Part shown: one piece after another, positions 8,382 to 62,399 of the stretch
How the letters are laid out: each line of letters begins with the position of its first letter
How positions within the stretch are numbered: the first letter of the stretch is position 1
DNA from: Thermoplasmata archaeon
GTDB taxonomy: Archaea; Thermoplasmatota; Thermoplasmata; Thermoplasmatales; ARK-15
Length of the DNA: 64,000 nt
Assembly: GCA_049965455.1 (NCBI GenBank)
Contig: JBMFWH010000002.1
Coordinates: forward strand, 1,210 to 65,209
Direction of reading: 5' to 3'
The notes under the pieces: generated by a model
The model's input: the letters and a program-made list of their open reading frames with translations, nothing else
Told to the model about the DNA's origin: nothing
Databases searched by the model: none
Made by a program: the position numbers and the translations under genes

Positions 8382-8467
8382 CGCCGGAGGGGAGATTTGA
8401 ACTCCCGCTCCCCTTAACGGAGAACAGGCTCTCCAGGCCTGCGCCTTTGCCGCTCGGCTACTCCGGC
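8382..8467 (-). tRNA. tRNA-Ser (anticodon GGA)
   Basis: The reverse complement folds as a cloverleaf: acceptor GCCGGAG/CTCCGGC, anticodon stem CAGGC/GCCTG with loop CT-GGA-GA, a long variable arm, and T-arm GGGAG-TTCAAAT-CTCCC. No encoded CCA. Confidence 0.9.
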
Positions 8468-9403: not shown

Positions 9404-9502
9404 TTATTACAAAAAATATAATCTCTATCTTTTAAATACAGTGAAAATTACGCATAATACTCGCTTTTATGAAAACTTAACTTCAGAATCGTGACCTATT
9501 AC
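9404..9502 (+). mobile_element. MITE family 1, 5'-truncated copy
   Basis: Right-hand ~99 nt of the 174-bp element, ending in ACTTCAGAATCGTGACCTATTAC. Confidence 0.85.
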
Positions 9503-9510
9503 CAAAAATA

Positions 9511-9684
9511 GTAACTGGTCACGATTATGAAGTGACGATATAACAGAAAGTGCCTTTAATACAATATATTTTTAATTTATTATTATTACAAAATAAAATA
9601 TATTATCTATCCTTTAAATACGGTAAAAATTACGCATAATACTCGTTTTTATGAAAACTTAACTTCAGAATCGTGACCTATTAC
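9511..9684 (+). mobile_element. MITE family 1, complete copy
   Basis: TIRs GTAACTGGTCACGATTATGAAGT / ACTTCAGAATCGTGACCTATTAC. 8-bp TSD CAAAAATA at 9503-9510 and 9685-9692. Confidence 0.9.
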
Positions 9685-9692
9685 CAAAAATA

Positions 9693-9704
9693 GAAATATT
9701 TATC
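9693..9704 (+). promoter_or_regulatory. BRE/TATA-like element (GAAA-TATTTATC) upstream of the 9731 ORF
   Basis: It lies about 30 nt upstream of the ATG. The same GAAATATTT string follows two other MITE copies. Confidence 0.35.
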
Positions 9705-9730
9705 TATATGTTAGATATTAATAAATATTT

Positions 9731-10006
9731 ATGGTACATGTTATAGTTGTCCACAGTTGGGAAGATTCCCAAAAGGATAAAGTAATGGATTTCGCAAAGC
9801 AAGTAACTGATATGGCTAAGAATAAAAAACTACCGAAAGAGTTGAAGTTGCTGAGCATCGATCTGGCAGAAAACAAAAATATGGCTGTTTGCAATTGGGA
9901 TGTAGATTCAGTAGACCATCTTATGCAGGTAGCCGGGCAGTTAAAACCAACCTGGAAAATAGATGCTTTTACAGCAAAGAGTGTTTACAAAAAAGGTCTT
10001 TTATAA
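9731..10006 (+). CDS. small hypothetical protein (91 aa; DUF3303-like alpha/beta pattern, uncertain)
   Basis: Clean ORF with a promoter-like element upstream. Family assignment rests on pattern resemblance only. Confidence 0.45.
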   Translation: MVHVIVVHSWEDSQKDKVMDFAKQVTDMAKNKKLPKELKLLSIDLAENKNMAVCNWDVDSVDHLMQVAGQLKPTWKIDAFTAKSVYKKGLL

Positions 10007-35226: not shown

Positions 35227-35292
35227 TTTTTATAGAGAGTGTATGTGATTTTATTATTAATATTTTTAGCTCTAAACGGATGTGGGACAAAA

Positions 35293-35595
35293 TTATTTGA
35301 CTTGATCTTTTAGTTCCTTTTTATCTTCTTCTGTTAAAATTATTTTCCTTGTAAAAATAGTTGCATTATATTCTTCAAGGAATCTTTTTACAGCATCAAG
35401 ATGCGGTTCTTCTATTATTATTACTCCTCTGATTAATTTTTTATGAGGTAGATCATCAAGCAATCCATGTCTATGATAATGATATTTTCCTTTCCAAGAC
35501 GAAGAATTTTGACCATAGAACTTCTTGCAGAACTGGTTTATTTGATTTGTTTTCGTGCCTTTTGGCAATCTAAATACTACTATTATTCCTTCCAT
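35293..35595 (-). CDS. IS-borne hypothetical protein (100 aa)
   Basis: Intact ORF entirely inside the IS and divergent from the transposase. Its stop codon overlaps the inner edge of the left IR. No family recognised. Confidence 0.5.
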   Translation of the reverse strand: MEGIIVVFRLPKGTKTNQINQFCKKFYGQNSSSWKGKYHYHRHGLLDDLPHKKLIRGVIIIEEPHLDAVKRFLEEYNATIFTRKIILTEEDKKELKDQVK

Positions 35596-35657
35596 TATGG
35601 GTGTAATAACCCATAACTATTTAAACTTGTTTGTTAGTTTGTTATATACTACATATA

Positions 35658-36609
35658 ATGCCAAAATTCTTTGATAATGATATCAGGGAAAAATTGAAAG
35701 AACTAGAGGAACACATCAAGAAAGAATATCTTAGCTCCAGGAAGAAAAAGAAAAGGGACTGGAGAACATATGAACAGGAATTTTCAAAGAGAATCATGGA
35801 TGCGATAACGCTACTTGATCCATTGATCAAGGAATCTGTGCAAATGATACATATAGAGAAAGGTGCTGGAAGACCGGCAAATCTAAATCTAGAACATAAA
35901 ATGAATTTGATCTTAACAAAACAGCTTGTTGGAGAATCAAATCGTATGTTTCAGGTATGCTTGATTTATTCACTCTTCTTTCAGGCATTGAAATATCCTA
36001 CAAAACTATTGAAAGATTGTATTCTGAAGATACAGTTAACATGGCTCTCCATAATTTGCATGTACTATTATTAAAAAAGAAGAATGTGGAAAAAGTTGAT
36101 GCTACTGGCGATGGAACAGGATACTCAATGATAATATCCAAACATTATGAAACATACATTCAGAAATTAAAGGAAAGGAAAATAAAGGGACAAATAAAAA
36201 AAGGGCGAAGAGAAGATTGTTTGCATATACATTCAGGATCATGGATCTGAAAAGCAAGATGTACATAGCATATGGTACGAGCTTGAAATCAGAAAAAGAT
36301 GCATTTGAAAAAGCGATGAGAATGCTAAGATCGCACGATACAAATATAGAGATGGATAGTATCAGGCTTGATAGATATTATAGCTCTCCAAAATACGTAG
36401 ATAAATTTGGAGCTGCTAAAGTATATATAATACCAAAGAAAAATGCCACTTTAAATGGATCAATAAAATGGAAAAACACAATGAAAGAATTTGTAGGAAA
36501 TACACTGGAATATCTGGGGCAATATTATTTAAGGAATAATTCAGAAAATGGATTTTCGGCAGATAAGAAAATGCTAGGCTGGTCTGTAATGCAAAAAAGA
36601 GAGGATTGA
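35658..36609 (+). pseudogene. DDE transposase with Y-2-R-3-E-6-K motif, interrupted by two -1 frame changes
   Basis: Three overlapping frames (..36074, 35957..36250, 36217..36609). Candidate DDE residues are VDATGDG, IRLDRYY and YYLRNNSENGFSADKK. The shifts map to a T-run (~35949-35951) and an A7 run (36196-36202). Confidence 0.75.
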
Positions 36610-36722
36610 ATAAATTGTGCATTGAAAACCATTGGTCTTTGGCACAATTTATTTAATGTTGGAAGATCTTAGAATTTTGTCCCACATCCGCTCTAAAACT
36701 TAAAAAAGCTTAAATCTTTTTT

Positions 36723-38243
36723 GTGCATATCAGAATTATGATCATTATAGATGGAGAGAACTTGAAAATTGAAGATGTGGTTGCCGTTGCTAGAAATTAT
36801 GAAAAAATTGAACTTTCTGAGAAATCAATAAAAAATGTTAGAGAAAATCGGAGCAATCTTGAAAAGTTGATAGCTTCCGGGGCAATAGTATATGGCGTCA
36901 ACACCGGCTATGGAGATCTCGTAAACACTCGCATTAGCCACGATGATATGAAAAAGTTGCAGAAAAACCTGATAATGAGCCATTCGGTTGGTGTTGGAAA
37001 GTATTTTGATCTTGACATTGTAAGGGCAACGATGCTGATACGGCTGAACACCCTACTTAAAGCAAAGTCCGGGGTTAGACCTGAAGTTTTAATACTTTTG
37101 AAAGAACTTCTCAATAAAAATGTAGTTCCAGCAATACCAGAGAAAGGTAGCGTTGGCTCTAGCGGAGATCTTGCACCTCTGGCACATATGACCCTTGTGA
37201 TGATCGGAAAAGGAAAAGCATTTTACCACGATAAATTGCTAGAGGGAAATGAGGCTCTAAAACTTGCGTCTATATTGCCCATAGAATTAAGCTATAAGGA
37301 GGGAGTGGCGCTTATAAACGGAACCAGCGTGATGAGTGGTGTTGCGGCATTGAACATACATGATTCTATTAACCTATTGAAAAATTCTCTTATTGCTTCA
37401 TCTTTAACTTTGGAAGCCTTAAATGGTAATGATGACGCTTTTGATCCAAAGATATTATCCTTAAGGCCACATGAAGGTCAGGTTAAAACTGGTGCCATTG
37501 TAAAAAGCATGGTAGAAGAGAGCAAGATCATAGAAGAAGCTAAAAAGTTCAAGATCCAGGATGCCTATTCATTGCGATGCATACCGCAGGTAGCTGGAGC
37601 AGTATACGACACGATTGTGTTTGCAAAAAACATTGTAGAAACGGAACTTAATTCTGTTACAGATAACCCCATAATATTAGAACGTGCATATTCCGGCGGC
37701 AATTTTCATGGAGAATATATAGGATTTGCAATGGATTATCTGGGCATTGCAATGGCTGAACTGGCAAATATTGCTGAGCGCAGAATTGCGCGCATGGTAG
37801 ATCATAAATTGAGTGATCTGCCAGCATTTTTGATTGAAAACTCCGGGTTGAATTCTGGCATGATGATGATTCAGTACACTGCCGCGGCATTAGTATCTGA
37901 GAATAAGGTACTGGCACATCCGGCGACAGTAGACTCAATACCCACCAGCGCTAATCAAGAAGATCATGTAAGCATGGGAACTATTGCAGCAAGAAAAGGT
38001 AGGGACATAATAAACAATGTAAAGCACGTGATCGCAATTGAATATTTAGTAGCTTCCCAGGCTTTAGAATATCGAAAACATGAAATGGCAAAAAATACAG
38101 AAATAGCGTATAAACTCATAAGAAAAGGAGTTAACCCTTTGACAGAAGATCGAGAGATGGGAGAGGATGTAAGATATATAATAAAGATGATTGATGAGAA
38201 AACTTTTAATAATAATCTGAATTTTGTAGACCGTTTAATATGA
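36723..38243 (+). CDS. hutH: histidine ammonia-lyase
   Basis: MIO-region GSVGSSGDLAPLAH, plus NGTSVM and QEDHVSMG motifs. The likely start is MIIIDGENL at 36738. Confidence 0.88.
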   Translation: MHIRIMIIIDGENLKIEDVVAVARNYEKIELSEKSIKNVRENRSNLEKLIASGAIVYGVNTGYGDLVNTRISHDDMKKLQKNLIMSHSVGVGKYFDLDIVRATMLIRLNTLLKAKSGVRPEVLILLKELLNKNVVPAIPEKGSVGSSGDLAPLAHMTLVMIGKGKAFYHDKLLEGNEALKLASILPIELSYKEGVALINGTSVMSGVAALNIHDSINLLKNSLIASSLTLEALNGNDDAFDPKILSLRPHEGQVKTGAIVKSMVEESKIIEEAKKFKIQDAYSLRCIPQVAGAVYDTIVFAKNIVETELNSVTDNPIILERAYSGGNFHGEYIGFAMDYLGIAMAELANIAERRIARMVDHKLSDLPAFLIENSGLNSGMMMIQYTAAALVSENKVLAHPATVDSIPTSANQEDHVSMGTIAARKGRDIINNVKHVIAIEYLVASQALEYRKHEMAKNTEIAYKLIRKGVNPLTEDREMGEDVRYIIKMIDEKTFNNNLNFVDRLI

Positions 38244-41702: not shown

Positions 41703-41896
41703 CTATGACAGAAATAAAGCGTTAAATTTATTACTATTTCCTTGCTTTTTTATTATATATTAAAGTGCATTGGTGATAGTTTTTCTTTAAAAAGTAAATA
41801 CCCCCTACACTTTTAATATCTTGGAGATCCACTACTTTCCGATACTTTTTAGTTATGAGTATATAAAGGTGGTCTAACGGTTTGTTTCTGGCATAG
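41703..41896 (+). mobile_element. MITE family 2, copy 1
   Basis: 194 bp with TIRs CTATGACAGAAATAAAGCGTTA / TAACGGTTTGTTTCTGGCATAG. 8-bp TSD CGTCCAAA at 41695-41702 and 41897-41904. Confidence 0.88.
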
Positions 41897-45497: not shown

Positions 45498-46370
45498 TTA
45501 TTTATAATGTTGATGCTGCGATAATACCGATATTAAATCAATATCGTAAATCATTGCCACCAGATCATCATATGCATTTTTTACCGGTAATTGGCTAAAA
45601 TCATTATCTACCATTATACTTGCTACCTTGGATATAGGGGTCTTGGTATGTGCATATACTGGGTCTTTAATCATCAACTCACTTACTTTTATGGCCGGAA
45701 TCTCCAATTTTTCTTCTAAATATAATATTTTTAATACGTTTCTTATTCCTTCCCATGTCCATGCATCTTCATCTTCGCCCATACCTACCTGGGACATGGA
45801 TGTAGATACATCTACTTTGGCGCTATTTATTATATCCCGGTCTGTGATAATTCCAACCAGGTTTAAGTCATCATCAATAATCGGAAATGCAGTTAGTTTG
45901 GTAAGAGACATAGTTTTGTAAACTACCTTTAAAGGTACATCCACATATATTGGAATACAAGGGTTACGGATGTATTTTTCTATCGGATTTGAAATGTTTT
46001 CTTCTATTATTATTTTCAAAAACTCTTTTGGAGTTATTATCCCTTGCAACTTGTTTTTATCATTAACAACGGCGATGTGTCTCCTGTTTATTTTTACCAT
46101 TGAATTTACTGCTTCTGCAATAGATTCCGTACCCATAATTTTCGGGCCATCTTTGCGCATCAATAACGCGATTTGCTCTTCTTTTGGATTTTCAAAGATG
46201 TCTCTTCTGCTCACAATACCCAAGAACGTGTCTTCCTCATCCACTATCGGTAATGCGCTGACATTCTTTTTAGCCATTAATTTAAGTGCATCTGTCCTGC
46301 TCGCCGGGGCTTTTAATACTATTGGATTTTTATTCATGATTTTTGTAATTTTATCAGTCATCAGAATCAC
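45498..46370 (-). CDS. CBS-domain protein (four CBS repeats)
   Basis: Repeated h-P-V/I-hD-x-x-x-G-I-h-T/S-x-x-D motifs (ALPIVDEEDTFLGIVSRRDI and others). Confidence 0.8.
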   Translation of the reverse strand: MILMTDKITKIMNKNPIVLKAPASRTDALKLMAKKNVSALPIVDEEDTFLGIVSRRDIFENPKEEQIALLMRKDGPKIMGTESIAEAVNSMVKINRRHIAVVNDKNKLQGIITPKEFLKIIIEENISNPIEKYIRNPCIPIYVDVPLKVVYKTMSLTKLTAFPIIDDDLNLVGIITDRDIINSAKVDVSTSMSQVGMGEDEDAWTWEGIRNVLKILYLEEKLEIPAIKVSELMIKDPVYAHTKTPISKVASIMVDNDFSQLPVKNAYDDLVAMIYDIDLISVLSQHQHYK

Positions 46371-46424
46371 TCTATAAATCTGTATAGTAAAATTGTTTCT
46401 GTATATTAAATTTATCTATAGTTG

Positions 46425-46597
46425 GTAACTGGTCACGATTATGAAGTGACGATATAACAGAAAGCGCCTTTAATACAATATATTCTAAATTTATTATTAT
46501 TACAAAATAAAATATATTATCTATTCTTTAAATTCTGAAAAATTACGCATAATACTCGCTTTTATGAAAACTTAACTTCAGAATCGTGACCTATTAC
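46425..46597 (+). mobile_element. MITE family 1, complete copy (no intact TSD)
   Basis: Same TIRs and interior as 9511-9684. The flanks ATAGTTG / CGGAAAAC do not match each other. Confidence 0.88.
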
Positions 46598-46601
46598 CGG
46601 A

Positions 46602-46617
46602 AAACGAAATATTTTTA
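46602..46617 (+). promoter_or_regulatory. BRE/TATA-like element (ACGAAA-TATTTTTA) for guaB
   Basis: Centred about 27 nt upstream of the guaB ATG, consistent with a leaderless or short-leader transcript. Confidence 0.4.
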
Positions 46618-46640
46618 TTTATAAATGTTATTAATACTCT

Positions 46641-48092
46641 ATGTTTATAGAAAAGTTTGAATATATTAAAACAGGGCTTACATTCGATGATGTACTCTTA
46701 ATACCCTCTAGAACAAGTGTTGATCCTAAAGATACTCATGTCTCTTCTTCTGTTTCTAGGCATATAAAATTGAAGATTCCAATAGTCAGTTCTCCTATGG
46801 ATACAGTAACTGAAGATGCCATGGCCATTGCAATGGCTAGAATGGGGGGATTAGGAATAGTCCATAGAAATTTAACAGTGGATGAACAGGTGGCAATTGT
46901 AAGAAAGGTAAAGAAAGAAGAGAGTATAATAATAAGGGATTTATATACTGTTTCCCCTGATACGCCGATTAAAGATGCTCAGAAAATCATTTTAGATAAA
47001 AAAATTACGGGCTTGCCTGTCATAATGGAAGGAAAGTTAGTGGGGATACTGACTTCAAGAGATATTAGATTTTATAAGGGAGAGAACCTATCAGTAAAAG
47101 ACCTTATGACAAAAGAAGTGGTAACCGGCTCAGAAGATATCAAGATAAGTGAGGCAATAAAAATATTGCATGATAATAGAATTGAAAAATTACCAATCGT
47201 AGATGGCCAGAATAGATTGGTAGGATTGATAACTGCCAGTGATATTGAAAAGAGAGAAACATATCCCGATGCAACTAGAGATAAAGAGGGCAGGCTGAAG
47301 GTAGGTGCTGCTGTTGGCCCGTTTGATATTTTAAGGGCAGAGATGCTTGAAAAATCAGGAGTAGATTTGCTGGTGGTTGACACCGCTCATGCACATAACG
47401 AGAAAGTTATGGCAGGAATAAAAGAAATTCGTAAAAAGCTGGATATTGACATTATTGCCGGGAACATTGCCACTAAAGAATCTGCAGAAGATATCATAGC
47501 ATTGGAAGTAGACGGATTGAGAGTCGGCATAGGGCCAGGTTCAATCTGTACTACCAGGATAATTGCCGGCGCTGGAATGCCACAATTAGAAGCTATTTCA
47601 CAGGCCGCAGAAATTGCTGAAAAACAGCAGATTCCGGTGATTGCAGATGGAGGCATTAGATATTCTGGAGACATTGTAAAAGCTATTGCTGCAGGAGCAA
47701 ATGTAGTAATGCTAGGAAGCCTTTTGGCAGGCACGGATGAGGCCCCGGGAGAAGAAATGTTTATAGAAGGAAAGAAATTTAAGAGTTATAGAGGAATGGG
47801 CTCATTAGGCGCAATACAGAAAGGCATTTCAGACAGATATGGTAAGATAGGTGGCACAAAGTTTGTTCCGGAAGGCGTTGAAGCAGCAATACCATATAAA
47901 GGCAAAGTTAAAGACACGATTTTACAGCTGATTGGTGGGATCAGATCAGGAATGGGGTATGTAGGGGCAAAAGATATAGATTCATTGAGAAAAAATGCCA
48001 GATTCATCAGGATTACGCAAAGTGGTCTGATTGAGAGCCATCCACATAACGTCACCATAATCTCCGATTCGCCAAACTATCCTGTTAAATAG
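46641..48092 (+). CDS. guaB: IMP dehydrogenase
   Basis: GLTFDDVLLIPS, an internal CBS pair, the catalytic loop GIGPGSICTTR, and GGIRYSGD. Confidence 0.95.
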   Translation: MFIEKFEYIKTGLTFDDVLLIPSRTSVDPKDTHVSSSVSRHIKLKIPIVSSPMDTVTEDAMAIAMARMGGLGIVHRNLTVDEQVAIVRKVKKEESIIIRDLYTVSPDTPIKDAQKIILDKKITGLPVIMEGKLVGILTSRDIRFYKGENLSVKDLMTKEVVTGSEDIKISEAIKILHDNRIEKLPIVDGQNRLVGLITASDIEKRETYPDATRDKEGRLKVGAAVGPFDILRAEMLEKSGVDLLVVDTAHAHNEKVMAGIKEIRKKLDIDIIAGNIATKESAEDIIALEVDGLRVGIGPGSICTTRIIAGAGMPQLEAISQAAEIAEKQQIPVIADGGIRYSGDIVKAIAAGANVVMLGSLLAGTDEAPGEEMFIEGKKFKSYRGMGSLGAIQKGISDRYGKIGGTKFVPEGVEAAIPYKGKVKDTILQLIGGIRSGMGYVGAKDIDSLRKNARFIRITQSGLIESHPHNVTIISDSPNYPVK

Positions 48093-49751: not shown

Positions 49752-49824
49752 CGCCGCCGATCGGATTTGAACCGATGACCACTCGGTTAACAGCCGAGCG
49801 CTCCACCTGCTAAGCTACGGCGGC
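49752..49824 (-). tRNA. tRNA-Asn (anticodon GTT)
   Basis: Reverse complement reads GCCGCCG-TA-GCTTAGCAGGTGGAGC-G-CTCGG-CTGTTAA-CCGAG-TGGTC-ATCGGTTCAAATCCGAT-CGGCGGC-G. No encoded CCA. Confidence 0.9.
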
Positions 49825-55346: not shown

Positions 55347-55540
55347 CTATGACAGAAATAAAGCGTTAAATCTATTGCTATTTCCTTATGGTTTTATTAT
55401 GTATTTCAGGGCATTTATGATAGCTTTTCTTAAAAAAGTACATACCCCATACACTTTTAATATCTTGGAAATAAACTATTTTACGATACTTTTTACTTAT
55501 GAGTATATAAATGTGGTCTAACGGTTTATTTCTGGCATAG
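55347..55540 (+). mobile_element. MITE family 2, copy 2
   Basis: Same TIRs and interior as 41703-41896. 8-bp TSD GTTTTTTA at 55339-55346 and 55541-55548. Confidence 0.88.
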
Positions 55541-59459: not shown

Positions 59460-60146
59460 TTATGTTGTTTTTAAGCCTGAAATCTCTTCCACTTTATCCT
59501 CTTTCCCGATCAATAAAGTGTCTATAAAACCGATGAATAAGCCAACTTCTACTACGCCAGGAACATATTTTAGCTTTTTATATAATACCTCTGGGTTTTC
59601 AAAGTTAAGATTTTTACAATCTATAATATAATTTTTGTTGTCTGTCAGATATGTCTTGCCTGTAACTTTTCTAATCTCACAGATAGCCCCCATTCTTTCA
59701 ATGTTGTTAATGACAGACAGATATGAAAAAGGTATAACCTCAATAGGTAAAGGGTAGGTTCCGAGCCTGTTTTTTAGTTTGGATTCATCTATCACTATGA
59801 CCCTATACTTAGAATTGTAGGCCAGTACCTTTTCTCTCAATAGCGCTCCGCCACCGCCTTTGATCATATTTAATTTATTGTCAACCTCATCAGCGCTATC
59901 TATGTAAATATCAGATGTCTGGCCCTTAAACTTCAAGACTCTGATATTTGCCTGCTTTAATAATTCTTCAGATTTAGAAGAACTTGCAACTGTGTTAATT
60001 TTAAGGCCGTCATTTACTTTTTTTGCCAGCTCTTCGATGACAAACTTTACTGTAGACCCTGTCCCTATCCCAACTAAATATCCATCATTTATGTATTCTA
60101 CCGCTCTTCTAGCCGCCAATTGCTTTTCTATGTCCTGTAAATTCAT
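59460..60146 (-). CDS. rpiA: ribose-5-phosphate isomerase A
   Basis: GIGTGSTV, DSADEVD and KGGGGALLREK motifs. 228 aa. Confidence 0.92.
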   Translation of the reverse strand: MNLQDIEKQLAARRAVEYINDGYLVGIGTGSTVKFVIEELAKKVNDGLKINTVASSSKSEELLKQANIRVLKFKGQTSDIYIDSADEVDNKLNMIKGGGGALLREKVLAYNSKYRVIVIDESKLKNRLGTYPLPIEVIPFSYLSVINNIERMGAICEIRKVTGKTYLTDNKNYIIDCKNLNFENPEVLYKKLKYVPGVVEVGLFIGFIDTLLIGKEDKVEEISGLKTT

Positions 60147-60191
60147 GATTAAAAGATATATTCAATCAATTGATATAACTTTCCATTGGGA

Positions 60192-60365
60192 GTAACTAGT
60201 CACGATTATGAAACGGCAATATAAAAGAAAGTGCCTTTAATGCAATATATTTTTAATTTATTATTATTACAAAATAAAATATATTATCTATCCTTTAAAT
60301 TCGGTAAAAATTACGCATCATACTCGTTTTTATAAAAACTTAACTTCAGAATCGTGACCAGTTAC
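60192..60365 (+). mobile_element. MITE family 1, complete copy
   Basis: 8-bp TSD CATTGGGA at 60184-60191 and 60366-60373. Confidence 0.9.
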
Positions 60366-60396
60366 CATTGGGATCTTTTGTAAAAAATTGAGATAT

Positions 60397-60442: not shown

Positions 60443-61330
60443 ATGTCAGGCATTGGTGTCGCTAGGAGGATAAATATGAAATATACAAAAAACCATAACA
60501 AAAATATGAACGCACCTGCCGTTGGAATTGATATTGGAGAGAGTGAAAGCGTTGCTCACTTTGTCTCTGCTTCTGGAGACACTCTTGAGCATTTTAGCTT
60601 TAAGATGGATGATGCTGGATTCAATGAATTCAGAAGAAAGATACCTGTTAATGCAAGAATTGCATTTGAGGCATCTGGCCTTGCATATCCAGTCTTCAAA
60701 AAACTTAAGAACTTAGGATATGAAGATATTACGGTTGCACATCCTAAAGAGTTATCATGGATTATAAAATCGAAGAAGAATGATCATGTGGATAGTATTA
60801 AAATAGCTAAATTACATTTAGTTGACATGCTACCCAAATCAAATCTTCTGAGCCAAGAAGAGCAGATATTTAGGGACTTGCTAATACAGAGAGTTAAGAT
60901 TGGAAAACAGATATCAAACTTAAAGAACAGCATCATAGGATATCTTAAACGATAAGATCTGTTCAACAAATTACCTGAATAATAATTTCCGGGAAAGAGG
61001 AAAAAAGCGATAAAAGCGATAAAGTTTGGAGGCCAGAGAGACTTAGTAATAAAGACCATGATGGATCACATGGAATTCTTGGAGAACCAACAAAAACCGA
61101 TAGAAAAATAGATCAAGAAGATAGCAAGGGAGAATGACGATGTAAAGTTACTGATGACAATCAAGGGTGTTGATTATTATCTTGCATCTCTGCTCTCCTC
61201 CTATATAGGAGACATAACAAGGTTTGAGAGCAAAGATCGACTGGCAAGTTTCTTTGGAGTATTACGAGCCATTATTTGCAGACGCCGGAAGAAGCATTCT
61301 GGAGCAGATTACCGGAAGAATGCAAGCTAG
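60443..61330 (+). pseudogene. IS110-family (DEDD) transposase, N-terminal domain intact, C-terminal domain decayed
   Basis: N-terminus VGIDIGESESVA...AFEASGLAYP. After the stop at 60955, further frames give DDVKLLMTIKGVDYYLASLLSSYIGDITRFESKDRLASFFGV (the IS110 C-terminal domain) with stops and shifts and no intact end. Confidence 0.75.
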
Positions 61331-61441
61331 GAGTATTTTATGCATTGGTTGAAGGAGCTGAAAAAGATGAGAAAAAATAAAAATATGAGGAGCCTTTATA
61401 TAATCAAAGGATCTGGGACTATACATCCAGCACAAAATTCA

Positions 61442-61614
61442 GTAACTGGTTACGATTATGAAGAGGTAATTTAAAAGAAAGTGCCTTTAATACAATATAT
61501 TTTTAATATATTATTATTACAAAATAAATATATTATCTATCTTTTAAATATAGTGAAAATTACGCATAATACTAGCTTTTATGAGAACTTAACTTCAGAA
61601 TCGTGACCTATTAC
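61442..61614 (+). mobile_element. MITE family 1, complete copy
   Basis: 8-bp TSD AAAATTCA at 61434-61441 and 61615-61622. Confidence 0.9.
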
Positions 61615-61622
61615 AAAATTCA

Positions 61623-61634
61623 GAAATATTTAAA
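61623..61634 (+). promoter_or_regulatory. BRE/TATA-like element (GAAA-TATTTAAA) upstream of the 61671 ORF
   Basis: About 40 nt upstream of the ATG, with a GGAGG Shine-Dalgarno-like sequence in between. Confidence 0.35.
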
Positions 61635-61670
61635 TACTGAAAACTTATAAACATTTATTGGAGGATTTAT

Positions 61671-62117
61671 ATGATTAATCAACAAAACCAAATGCCAGAT
61701 AATCCACAACCATACCAACAGCCACAACCAATGCCTAATGCATATTACCCTCCAAGAGCTAGCATATCAGAAACACTATCTAAAGATAATATGATAGCTA
61801 TCTTAACTATATTAAGTGTATTTTTGATGTGGTTAGGATATCTATTAGAGATCGTAGGAGCAATACCTTCCAACACTGGTGCAACAAATGATACAATTAT
61901 AAGCTCTGGAGCAATAATTTTTGAATTAGGTGCATTTATGCTTGTACTAATGCTAATTCTAGTGGGACTTTTGCGATTTATATTCCCAGCATGGCAAAAA
62001 CATGAGGCAGACAGATGGGTCAGAGTTTTCCTAATATTGGCTGGTCTGGTAATAGTTGTGATAGCATTTTCATTCATAACATCATTTGGCACACTATCTG
62101 CGCTATTACATATATAA
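61671..62117 (+). CDS. hypothetical membrane protein with Pro/Gln-rich N-terminus
   Basis: QQNQMPDNPQPYQQPQPMPNAYYPP followed by four hydrophobic helices. Confidence 0.5.
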   Translation: MINQQNQMPDNPQPYQQPQPMPNAYYPPRASISETLSKDNMIAILTILSVFLMWLGYLLEIVGAIPSNTGATNDTIISSGAIIFELGAFMLVLMLILVGLLRFIFPAWQKHEADRWVRVFLILAGLVIVVIAFSFITSFGTLSALLHI

Positions 62118-62326: not shown

Positions 62327-62399
62327 AGCCACTGGAGGGATTTGAACCCTCGACCTACTGATTACGAATCAATCGCTCTTCCTGCTGAGCTACAGTGGC
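62327..62399 (-). tRNA. tRNA-Thr (anticodon CGT)
   Basis: Reverse complement reads GCCACTG-TA-GCTCAGCAGGAAGAGC-G-ATTGA-TTCGTAA-TCAGT-AGGTC-GAGGGTTCAAATCCCTC-CAGTGGC-T. Confidence 0.9.

Follow-up and report, generated by a model that had tools for sequence, protein, structure and literature searches.

The window, that is, the whole 64-kb stretch of DNA that was analysed, carries four full copies and one fragment of a short repeat, MITE family 1, of which further copies occur in relatives. About 86% of the window is coding, and all catalogued copies are intergenic. The copies and the features at their ends are as follows.

9404-9502, + strand: older fragment, the right half of a MITE family 1 copy, with 91% identity to copy A
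9503-9510, + strand: left target-site duplication (TSD) of copy A, CAAAAATA; these are also the 8 nt that stood 3′ of the older fragment
9511-9684, + strand: MITE family 1 copy A, 174 bp, with CAAAAATA on both flanks
9685-9706, + strand: right TSD of copy A, CAAAAATA, then GAAATA+TTTATCTA, putative promoter core of the 91-aa ORF 9731-10006; TATA start 32 nt before the ATG
46402-46424, - strand: N8 CAACTATA, then GATAAATTTAATATA, putative promoter core of the divergent CBS-domain gene 45498-46370; abuts the left end of copy B
46425-46597, + strand: MITE family 1 copy B, 173 bp, TIRs GTAACTGGTCACGATTATGAAGT / ACTTCAGAATCGTGACCTATTAC
46598-46605, + strand: 8-nt spacer CGGAAAAC between the right end of copy B and the guaB promoter core
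46606-46619, + strand: putative guaB promoter core, BRE-like GAAATA and TATA-like TTTTTATT/TTTATTTA, 27-29 nt before the ATG at 46641
60170-60191, - strand: TSD TCCCAATG, then GAAAGTTATATC(AA), putative promoter core of the rpiA-like gene 59460-60146
60192-60365, + strand: MITE family 1 copy C, 174 bp, TSD CATTGGGA at 60184-60191 and 60366-60373
61442-61614, + strand: MITE family 1 copy D, 173 bp, TSD AAAATTCA at 61434-61441 and 61615-61622
61623-61636, + strand: GAAATA+TTTAAATA, putative promoter core upstream of ORF 61671-62117 (148 aa)

The copies have the anatomy of MITEs: they are 173-174 bp long, non-coding, bounded by TIRs, multi-copy and flanked by TSDs, and they have a TIR in common with an autonomous IS. 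The right end reads ...CGTGACCTATTAC, and the fold of copy B amounts to pairing of its TIRs and nothing more. An Rfam search of the window returned three tRNAs only, and MITE family 1 had no Rfam or Pfam match. Perfect 8-bp TSDs were found for copies A, C and D and for L010e2 (second of the MITEs before guaB in sister strain L010). Copy B has no TSD, its flanks being the hybrid pair TATAGTTG (left) and CGGAAAAC (right). An IS200/IS605 mechanism, considered for the TTAC-reading ends, is ruled out by the 23-nt TIRs and the 8-bp TSDs. The TTTAAATA box that a preliminary description of this DNA had placed inside the element, about 70 nt from its right end, exists 64-71 nt from that end in copy A (9613-9620) and reads TTTAAATT in copy B; it is conserved among the copies, but no more than the rest of the element.

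The 9-mer GAAATATTT begins exactly 8 nt past the right end of copies A, B and D (9693, 46606 and 61623, + strand), as that description had stated, at 38, 35 and 48 nt from the start codons of ORF 9731, guaB and ORF 61671, respectively. The window holds 7 matches to this 9-mer (3.16 expected), or about 7 per 128 kb with both strands counted, so its occurrence at one fixed position in three of four copies is far beyond chance. The 8 nt between the MITE end and the promoter core are the 8-bp TSD. The count of three in four had been taken from right ends and stands for these; copy C obeys the same rule at its promoter-facing left end, on the minus strand, where GAAAGTTATATC sits 37 nt upstream of the rpiA-like gene. 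That the MITE always has the same orientation toward the gene applies to the three quoted copies only: copy C and the L010 guaB copy present the opposite end to the promoter, and L003 and site A also differ from each other in this respect. The identity of the 8 nt as a TSD, the compliance of copy C and the IS66/ISBst12-type partner described below were absent from the preliminary description.

Targets have been re-used. Site A (9404-9692) is laid out as fragment-CAAAAATA-MITE-CAAAAATA-promoter, and some other strains carry the full IS at this junction, before the 91-aa ORF. At the guaB site of L010, a different, inverted MITE is followed by a true TSD, GTAAAAAC, and then by the same GAAATATTT. 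The other side of copy D is taken up by a dead IS110 remnant.

Promoters were called from the sequence and the distance to the start codon. This reading of the junction boxes is supported by the MITE-free genes of this genome, since these have the same spacing, with the TATA box mostly 29-44 nt before the ATG and an A-rich hexamer directly before it. The junctions likewise have a BRE, purine/A-rich and about 6 nt long, directly before the TATA box. In GAAATATTT, the TATA-like octamer begins at an offset of 6 nt, and thus 32, 29 and 42 nt from the ATG of ORF 9731, guaB and ORF 61671, respectively; the range of 29-32 nt seen at guaB, the 91-aa ORF and rpiA fits leaderless mRNAs. In L003, the TATA box starts 27 nt before the 5′ end of a tRNA. 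An A-rich BRE followed by a TATA box is also known from Thermococcus (PMC5316973). The earlier interpretation of GAAATATTT as a BRE plus a TATA-like box is supported, as it consists of GAAATA and the start of the TATA box at a normal distance from the start codon. It is not itself the determinant of insertion, being one variant of a broader BRE and TATA target (others are, for example, GAAAAGTTAATATA, AATAAATTTATATA and GGAAACTTTATATA), and it also occurs at a MITE-free promoter, upstream of gene 8777-9106 in L023.

MITE family 1 is non-autonomous and derives by deletion from a 1635-bp IS of the IS66 family (ISBst12 group) present in sister strains. Sister strains are represented in the JGI samples 3300047581-84, 3300050361/85 and 3300052694 and in the runs SRR29605747/934. 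IS and MITE have in common a 23-nt TIR, GTAACTGGTCACG[A/G]TTATGAAGT, and about 60 nt of right sub-terminal sequence, and the full IS copy at L023:9340-10974 shows GTAACTGGTCACG... at both ends, as does every MITE copy. The partner transposase (467 aa, L018:2-1402) matched NF033517 IS66 with 242.8 bits (cut-off 180), PF03050 with 134.1 bits and zf-IS66 with 28.3 bits, and a homologue from Cuniculiplasma, P0128, carries the UniRef name 'ISBst12 group IS66 family transposase'. The 1635 bp of the IS are taken up by a single transposase frame, which has 467+ aa in L018 and is frameshifted in L023, and tnpA/tnpB accessory genes are absent. The partner IS thus has the DDE transposase, the TIRs beginning with GTAA, the 8-bp TSD and the single ORF of the IS66/ISBst12 group, which it also resembles in its NF033517/PF03050/zf-IS66 domains, the TIR start GTAAC and the length of 1.6 kb. 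TSDs of 8 bp were read as CAAAAATA, CATTGGGA, AAAATTCA and GTAAAAAC for MITEs and as GGTTAATG, TTAGAAAC, TAAAAATA and ATCGAATA for related ISs. ISDge4, a bacterial member of the group, has the TIR GTAACTGC... / GTAACTGCTCAGCA and an 8-bp direct repeat (PMC12898284). Bacterial members of the group, ISDge4 among them, are reported to lie within coding genes (PMC12898284), whereas the archaeal members described here lie 6 bp upstream of TATA boxes; the promoter-edge trait is therefore not constant across the family.

We catalogued 16 element-end flanks of the family 1 IS/MITE at 13 independent sites in the species and its relatives. In 11 of the 16 flanks, N8 is followed by an A-rich hexamer and a TATA-like box, and GAAA stands directly past N8 at 6 of the 13 sites (null 0.83% per flank, P = 3e-8). 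The genes downstream of these junctions include guaB, rpiA, a thermosome gene and a tRNA. A further test was made on 17 sites that had played no part in forming the hypothesis, with a TATA box defined as at most one mismatch to TTTAWATA. Such a box started 4-8 nt past the TSD at 9 of the 17 sites, compared with 4.1% per flank in intergenic DNA (P = 2e-6) and 6.4% at positions drawn at random 40-140 nt before start codons (P = 3e-7). The sample is small, at about 20 sites; metagenomic contigs are broken at repeats, and some of the flanks belong to chimeric or recombinant copies. For 20 junctions picked as promoter-facing, among them those of IS66 relatives from Cuniculiplasma and a DPANN-like archaeon, the consensus is nnnnAAnA directly followed by GAAAAnTTTATATA, with A at +4 in 20/20. 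After the TSD, GAAAAnTTTATATA reads as a 6-nt A-rich BRE and then a TATA box, which starts 6 nt past the TSD in most promoter-facing junctions (range 4-8 nt).

The signal is one-sided, in that the other flank has no mirror-image motif, and conservation is highest 7-14 bp beyond the cut. The one site with a symmetric palindromic target, TTTC-N8-GAAA, was that of guaB in L010, and such symmetry is no general feature. No promoter-like box was seen at L011:77, at the left flank in L023 and at one or two DPANN-like IS sites, and one promoter-like target lies inside the 3′ end of an HxlR gene, so that the target need not be a working promoter. When the MITE right end was scanned against larger collections, the matches listed comprised 3 loci in Thermoplasmata MAGs in the genome collection, and 1 real and 4 chance matches in the metagenome collection; in viral contigs, scanned for the TIR core and for the end of the DPANN-like IS, matches were due to chance or absent.

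The same geometry recurs in distant relatives. In the DPANN-like archaeon, an IS66-type IS whose transposase is only 38% identical has the junctions TTAGAAAC-TAAAAG-TTTATATA, TAAAAATA-GGAAAC-TTTATATA, ATCGAATA-GGAAAG-CTTTTAAA and ATAGTTTC-GATAGC-TTTTTAAA. In Cuniculiplasma divulgatum, a TATA-like box comes after the TSD GGTTAATG, about 30 nt ahead of a gene start. P0141 represents one site, recurring in many samples. P0208 (Methanomicrobiales-type IS66) and P0162 showed no recognisable GTAA TIRs within 400 nt and were excluded from the set.

Other elements behave alike. As stated in the preliminary description, MITE family 2 (at moaC and psmA) and the 35.3-kb IS (at hutH) lie just upstream of promoter-like boxes. 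Elements with three unrelated kinds of termini and a DDE_Tnp_1-type IS are all found just upstream of promoters, and two small elements other than family 1, with unrelated termini, have the same distance of N8 to the promoter, which makes a purely transposase-specific explanation awkward. The TIR of MITE family 2 is CTATGMCAGAAAYAAA, and another of these elements lies upstream of the TBP gene. L010 has the empty site of a family 2 copy, in which the moaC promoter is native and older than the insertion, and the TSD abuts the BRE although about 47 nt of free spacer were available. No copy of family 1 had an empty site among the strains compared; for copies C and D, look-ups of the neighbours ORF 61671 and L37ae yielded none, because ORF 61671 (148 aa) is not on record and L37ae gave same-species context only.

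We believe that these data are probably best explained by an IS66-type transposase that integrates at the upstream edge of promoter cores, which would serve as a safe haven. The fixed geometry, the TSDs, the partner IS, the element anatomy and the recurrence in distant relatives are direct observations, and we infer that the choice of site is made at the integration step. The ISBst12-group transposase would make an 8-bp staggered cut such that the duplicated 8 bp end exactly where the 6-nt A-rich BRE and the TATA box begin. As promoter and gene would stay intact, such insertions would be nearly neutral, and elements could build up ahead of housekeeping genes at a coding density of about 86%. 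Each insertion would also regenerate the 8-bp target beside the promoter, so that the spot could be hit again, giving tandem and nested copies, and recombination between copies would produce hybrid flanks. Of the two alternatives offered in the preliminary description, the broader data favour the recognition of promoter DNA at target selection.

How the promoter edge is recognised can be read in two ways, and a read-out of the DNA by the transposase is as possible as recognition of DNA that TBP/TFB have bound and bent. The former could be an ordinary sequence preference, for an A-rich/T-rich 14-mer whose likeness to promoters is unconnected with transcription factors or promoter function, a reading we regard as a serious possibility but one to which we give less than even weight. 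The well-defined GAAAAnTTTATATA consensus, the zf-IS66 DNA-binding domain of the transposase and the target in the 3′ end of a gene, away from any annotated promoter, all agree with it. However, a two-fold symmetric transpososome reading DNA would usually show symmetry, the best-conserved part of the one-sided target lies 7-14 bp past the cut, and the geometry is common to elements with unrelated termini. Such a preference leads to the same outcome, promoter-edge insertion, and is a sub-case of the explanation favoured here, not a true alternative.

A bolder form is that the TBP/TFB-bound promoter edge is a host-defined integration hot spot, where transposases sense the complex or its bend and not the sequence; we advance this tentatively. 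It is with similar reserve that we suggest that IS66-type and perhaps other 8-bp-stagger transposases would use such a hot spot, as an archaeal counterpart of Ty3-TFIIIB, in at least Thermoplasmatota and a DPANN-like lineage.

Promoter-edge integration has to be weighed against random or merely AT-biased insertion, followed by purifying selection that keeps only the copies sparing genes and promoters in a compact genome. The high coding density, the intergenic position of all copies and the essential nature of the neighbours (guaB, rpiA, psmA, thermosome, tRNA) speak for such a filter, and as it acts on all elements, it also predicts that those with unrelated termini and the DDE_Tnp_1-type IS lie upstream of promoters. 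We nevertheless consider it unlikely, as it does not explain single-nucleotide precision: insertions a few nt further upstream should be equally tolerated, as in the free spacer of the empty moaC site, and copy D sits at N8 despite the dead IS110 remnant on its other side. The excess also persists against the null of positions 40-140 nt upstream (P = 3e-7), and one promoter-like target sits in the 3′ end of a gene.

Still less probable is that copies were retained for a benefit to the downstream gene, to which they would supply an outward promoter from the internal TTTAAATA, a regulatory site upstream or insulation from read-through. The conservation of that box among copies, 64-71 nt from the right end, and the single orientation of three copies relative to the gene had pointed this way. 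However, both orientations are found at promoters (copy C; L010 guaB), the box is no better conserved than the remaining element, and the full IS and elements with unrelated termini hold the same position, once the same junction, without common sequence. The native promoter core is intact in addition, and in the case of the family 2 copy it is older than the insertion; the second alternative of the preliminary description, that copies are kept as an added promoter or 5′ region, thus finds no support. Finally, the identical 9-mer at an identical distance in three copies might mean that GAAATATTT is part of the mobile unit or that the three sites are segmental duplicates, which would make its recurrence uninformative on target choice, but this is refuted by the perfect 8-bp direct repeats outside the TIRs of A, C and D, which end the element before the 8 nt, and by the unrelated sequences past the 9-mer, and different BRE/TATA variants at other junctions and GAAATATTT at a MITE-free promoter leave it a negligible probability.

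If promoter-edge integration is true, these would be, as far as found, the first archaeal transposons that aim at basal promoters with nucleotide precision. Within openly searchable papers, the literature on archaeal MITEs (SM1-SM4, MITEHsal) yielded no promoter-edge targeting, and that on IS66/ISBst12 target preference and archaeal promoter-targeting transposons yielded nothing relevant. Such targeting would explain how a compact genome holds about one MITE per 13 kb without harm to housekeeping genes, why elements stand in tandem or nested in intergenic regions, and why copies serve as points of recombination at which gene order is reshuffled from strain to strain (L014). It would also provide a sequence-only promoter marker for uncultured archaea, in which the element end plus 14 nt leads to the TATA box, and suggests a possible tool for marker-free insertion beside archaeal promoters.

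Integration at a fixed distance from promoter-bound factors is known from eukaryotic retroelements, namely Ty3, Ty1, Dictyostelium TRE/DGLT-A and S. pombe Tf1, which are LTR or non-LTR elements whose integrases are tethered through proven protein contacts. The elements described here resemble them in their nucleotide-scale fixed distance from a basal promoter element, the TATA box lying mostly 6 nt past the TSD (range 4-8), and in their position ahead of essential genes, a tRNA gene in L003 among them, as a safe haven, but they belong to an archaeal DDE DNA transposon. TBP and TFB/Brf1 homologues are the factors that bind such promoter sites. If promoter-edge integration is true, the present system would make it possible to test directly if the TBP/TFB complex, the eukaryotic homologues of which guide Ty3, can be used by a DNA transposase.

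Tn7, through TnsD at attTn7, inserts beside a protein-induced DNA distortion, in one orientation and with dedicated target-selector proteins. The elements here are similar in that a one-sided signal lies beside, not within, the duplicated target and the neighbouring essential gene stays intact, but they have a single-ORF IS and insert in both orientations (copy C, L010, L003 compared with site A), and a Tn7/TnsD-like site-specific insertion was therefore rejected. Archaeal MITEs, for example SM1-SM4 of Sulfolobus and MITEHsal of Halobacterium, are small, TIR-bounded, non-coding elements mobilised in trans by ISs, and they show hybrid TSDs after recombination (PMC7002104). MITE family 1 is like them as a small derivative, while the partner families differ.

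The stretch is AT-rich (G+C about 36%) and comes from an uncultured Thermoplasmata archaeon, and its DNA is also present in the MAG assemblies GCA_049967915.1, GCA_049967235.1 and GCA_049977025.1. Five copies of MITE family 1, four full and one a fragment, were found in the 64-kb window by a repeat finder, and each full copy carries 23-nt terminal inverted repeats (TIRs), GTAACTGGTCACGATTATGAAGT and, on the opposite strand, GTAATAGGTCACGATTCTGAAGT.

Copies of MITE family 1
9511-9684, copy A, perfect 8-bp direct repeats CAAAAATA on both sides
46425-46597, copy B, flanking direct repeat absent
60192-60365, copy C, perfect 8-bp direct repeats CATTGGGA
61442-61614, copy D, perfect 8-bp direct repeats AAAATTCA
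9404-9502, right-half fragment

The preliminary description had placed GAAATATTT exactly 8 nt past the right end of three copies, and this was borne out for copies A, B and D (starts at 9693, 46606 and 61623); the 8-nt spacer is the target-site duplication (TSD). The fourth copy is no exception to this: the left end of copy C obeys the same rule on the minus strand, with TSD TCCCAATG and then GAAAGTTATATC, which begins 37 nt before the start codon of an rpiA-like gene (59460-60146, minus strand). The constant orientation toward the gene that had been claimed extends no further than the three quoted copies: each of the four copies has a BRE/TATA-like core at this distance, but the end that faces it varies. 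Two promoter-like boxes flank copy B, CGGAAAAC / GAAATATTTTTATTTATAAA ahead of guaB on the right and, on the minus strand, CAACTATA / GATAAATTTAATATA ahead of a divergent CBS-domain gene on the left. The guaB product has one relative at 98% identity, the next ones being at 69%, and in the sister strain with the 98% identical guaB (L010) a different copy, inverted and 78% identical, lies upstream of guaB; its TSD, GTAAAAAC, is perfect, and GAAATATTT comes next here too. When the 8-mers beside the guaB/CBS element were compared (46417-46424 and 46598-46605 in the window, L010:9405-9412 and 9958-9965), they differed at both junctions solely in the 3 nt adjoining the element (CGG/GTA and CAA/GAG, the latter in promoter sense), with the other 5 nt and the promoters identical. 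The element also has an internal TTTAAATA box, 64-71 nt from its right end (9613-9620 in copy A, with an equivalent site in the other copies), which reads TTTAAATT in copy B and is preceded by CTATCC, not an A-rich BRE.

Looking up the 91-aa ORF at 9731-10006 gave ten contexts from several strains. A longer element replaces the MITE upstream of this ORF in L015, L016, L018-L020 and L022, and the contigs L017 and L021 begin inside its end with an identical junction. This end reads ...ACTTCATAATCGTGACC(A/G/T)(A/G)TTAC, followed by (C/A)AAAAATA and GAAATATTT, a junction as in the window. The longer element encodes a 467-aa protein matching the NCBIfam IS66 transposase model at 242.8 bits (cut-off 180), Pfam DDE_Tnp_IS66 at 134 bits and zf-IS66, and a complete copy of this IS spans 1635 bp (L023:9340-10974). 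A 52-nt solo IS left end (L023:9288-9339) directly abuts this copy, and a MITE begins 13 nt past its right end (10988 onward), forming a nested cluster at the contig end. Transposase homologues at about 50% identity are frequent in Thermoplasmata, and the homologue in Cuniculiplasma divulgatum bears the name 'ISBst12 group IS66 family transposase'. ISDge4, of the ISBst12 group, is like the family 1 IS and MITE in having TIRs that begin GTAAC and an 8-bp duplication (PMC12898284). Because MITE family 1 and the IS have TIRs and about 60 nt of right sub-terminal sequence in common, the MITE is IS66/ISBst12-derived. Among the public matches listed, the repeat was found in Thermoplasmata MAGs only.

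Every readable element end in sister strains and relatives was taken into the junction list, including those of an IS whose transposase is just 38% identical and which occupies several sites in a host whose L7Ae is closest to Woesearchaeota/Nanoarchaeota.

Junctions with promoter-like boxes (8 nt / hexamer / box)
L014, left end, AGAGCATG / AATAAA / TTTATATA, upstream of the thermosome gene
L003, IS left end, AAAAGTAA / GAAAAG / ATTTAATA, 27 nt ahead of a tRNA
L002, both ends, GATAAATA / GAAAAG / TTAATATA and ATAAATTA / AAAAGTTAAATATA
L005, TATAATGT / AATATC / TTTATATA
L001, TTCAAAAA / ATAAAAAATTTATAC
38%-identity IS, matching TSD, TTAGAAAC / TAAAAG / TTTATATA, ahead of a cold-shock gene
38%-identity IS, matching TSD, TAAAAATA / GGAAAC / TTTATATA, 31 nt ahead of a gene start
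38%-identity IS, matching TSD, ATCGAATA / GGAAAG / CTTTTAAA
38%-identity IS, other end of one copy, ATAGTTTC / GATAGC / TTTTTAAA, ahead of the L7Ae-S28e-L24e operon

A Cuniculiplasma IS copy likewise shows TSD GGTTAATG, and the TATA-like TTATTAATA that comes after it stands about 30 nt ahead of the next gene, and the IS of a third relative (P0141) shows ATTTCAAA / GAAAAA / TTAATATA on one side. Among the ends read, no box was seen on the far side of the second MITE upstream of guaB in L010, at L011:77 (flank read on one side only), at the left flank of the L023 cluster, or on either side of one site of the 38%-identity IS (GGAAAATT). The far sides of copies C and D have no promoter-like box either; such boxless far sides, that in L010 included, are expected if the signal is one-sided. 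The target of the P0141 IS, GAAAAATTAATATATGG (L024:2840-2908, another Thermoplasmata lineage), occupies the final codons of an HxlR-family gene, on the antisense strand. Since this box is inside the 3′ end of a gene, what insertion correlates with is sequence that resembles a promoter and need not function as one.

Chance expectation per flank (TATA box: TTTAWATA with 1 mismatch or none)
Window intergenic DNA, TATA box exactly 6 nt after the 8-nt gap, 0.87%
Window intergenic DNA, TATA box 4-8 nt after the gap, 4.1%
Window intergenic DNA, GAAA directly after the gap, 0.83%
Conservative null, random gene-facing positions 40-140 nt ahead of start codons, TATA box at 4-8 nt, 6.4%

GAAA immediately followed the 8 nt at 6 of 13 family 1 sites (P = 3e-8), and 5 of 13 had a box at exactly +6 with 1 mismatch or none (P = 2e-6). 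Outside the hypothesis-forming set, the box started 4-8 nt after the TSD in 9/17 sites (P = 2e-6; conservative null, 3e-7), a count that omits the incomplete right flank of L040 and becomes 9/18 with it. A position matrix of 20 junctions read nnnnAAnA / GAAAAnTTTATATA, with A at +4 in 20/20 and no C at +1 to +5; its flanks were picked as promoter-facing, and it illustrates the pattern and is not a test of it.

In element-free genes of the species, TATA boxes mostly start 29-44 nt ahead of the ATG and are preceded by A-rich hexamers (e.g., GATAAA, ATAAAA, AAAAAT, GAAAAA), the same A-rich BRE plus TATA architecture as described for Thermococcus (PMC5316973). The MITE-adjoining box starts 29-32 nt ahead of the ATG at guaB, the 91-aa ORF and rpiA, a spacing that would fit leaderless mRNAs. 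Because GAAATATTTATTAAGG precedes a MITE-free gene in L023, GAAATATTT is evidently a normal promoter variant and not element-borne.

Two further small elements with unrelated termini show the same geometry, an 8-bp TSD, 6 nt and then TATA.

Other elements
41703-41896 and 55347-55540, MITE family 2, about 194 bp, TIR CTATGMCAGAAAYAAA, TSDs CGTCCAAA and GTTTTTTA
L016:5670-5830 and L017, third small repeat upstream of the TBP gene, about 140 nt, another copy at L010:9591-9782, ends poorly defined
35277-36690, DDE_Tnp_1-type IS, 1414 bp, TIR CGGATGTGGGACAAAATT, 7-bp TSD CTCTAAA

As the preliminary description had it, family 2 lies upstream of promoter-like boxes at moaC (CGTCCAAA / ATAAAT / TTTAAATA) and, on the minus strand, psmA (TAAAAAAC / TAAAAG / TTTATAAT), and the IS at 35.3 kb ends 18 nt short of the TATA-like CTTAAATC of hutH (36709), itself 29 nt ahead of the ATG at 36738. 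The transposase of that IS is frameshifted and its DDE_Tnp_1 match weak. L010 has no family 2 MITE ahead of moaC and shows a bare putative promoter, ...CCCAAA / ATAAATTTTAAATAG (empty site L010:4846-4929), so this putative promoter is older than the insertion. The third repeat has an apparent TSD TTTTTTAA directly ahead of ATAAAG / GTTATATA, the putative TBP gene promoter, and is absent there from the window (about 15.3 kb) and L013:13699-13780.

Direct reading of DNA by a symmetric transpososome would, as a rule, be visible as a symmetric signature at the target; here only one side carries the signal, and insertions of both orientations occur. The geometry of several elements hints at a host-side feature, in the form of DNA bound and bent by TBP/TFB, and it is possible, though in our view less likely than not, that the elements are aimed at such DNA. 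IS66-type enzymes with diverged ends might just as well mobilise the other small elements; family 2 has termini unlike those of IS66, and no IS was found that could be its partner. Ty3 integration is guided by TFIIIB, and TBP/TFB-directed archaeal insertion would be parallel to it, if true. The likeness to promoter-tethered eukaryotic retroelements is one of outcome, and unlike Tn7 these archaeal elements have neither orientation specificity nor a selector protein. The element itself, an ISBst12-group IS with its MITE, is of a known kind, and what stands out is its targeting behaviour; the searchable, non-subscription literature yielded no account of an IS66-family transposon, or of any transposon of archaea, that targets promoter edges.

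Target choice at integration is the simplest and most likely account. The transposase would position its staggered 8-bp cut such that the duplicated bases stop right at the BRE's upstream edge, with the TATA box 6 bp further on, leaving the promoter intact and allowing insertions ahead of essential genes to persist. The promoter-proximal TSD copy would rebuild the target, and the same spot could be hit again, giving the fragment-TSD-MITE-TSD-promoter array at 9404-9692, the IS-13 nt-MITE array of L023 and the stack of elements at guaB in L010. Copies recombining with one another would yield TSD-less elements flanked by two different promoters (copy B, L002, L014), whose flanks fit the sense of 'hybrid TSDs', a term used for Halobacterium elements (PMC7002104). 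Selection alone, as an explanation of the promoter-adjoining positions, is weak against the nucleotide precision seen where tens of free nucleotides were available, and against copy D, which is bordered on its other side by a dead IS110 remnant. Retention for regulatory benefit is unlikely given both orientations and the presence of the full IS and unrelated elements at the same kind of position.

Compared with 9511-9684 in the window, the MITE at L014:3274-3447 (GCA_049967915.1) also lies upstream of the 91-aa ORF, with another left neighbour, the thermosome gene, and no TSD; this joining is a rearrangement through recombination of two MITE copies at two promoters. Three tRNA genes on the minus strand (8382-8467, 49752-49824 and 62327-62399) were the sole Rfam matches in the 64-kb window, and around the second the window and L009 differ from L010 by about 150-200 nt. 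An IS110-family transposase pseudogene with DEDD_Tnp_IS110 and Transposase_20 fragments lies between copies C and D (60443-61330), and L011, of the same species, departs from the window within this remnant, at 60620.
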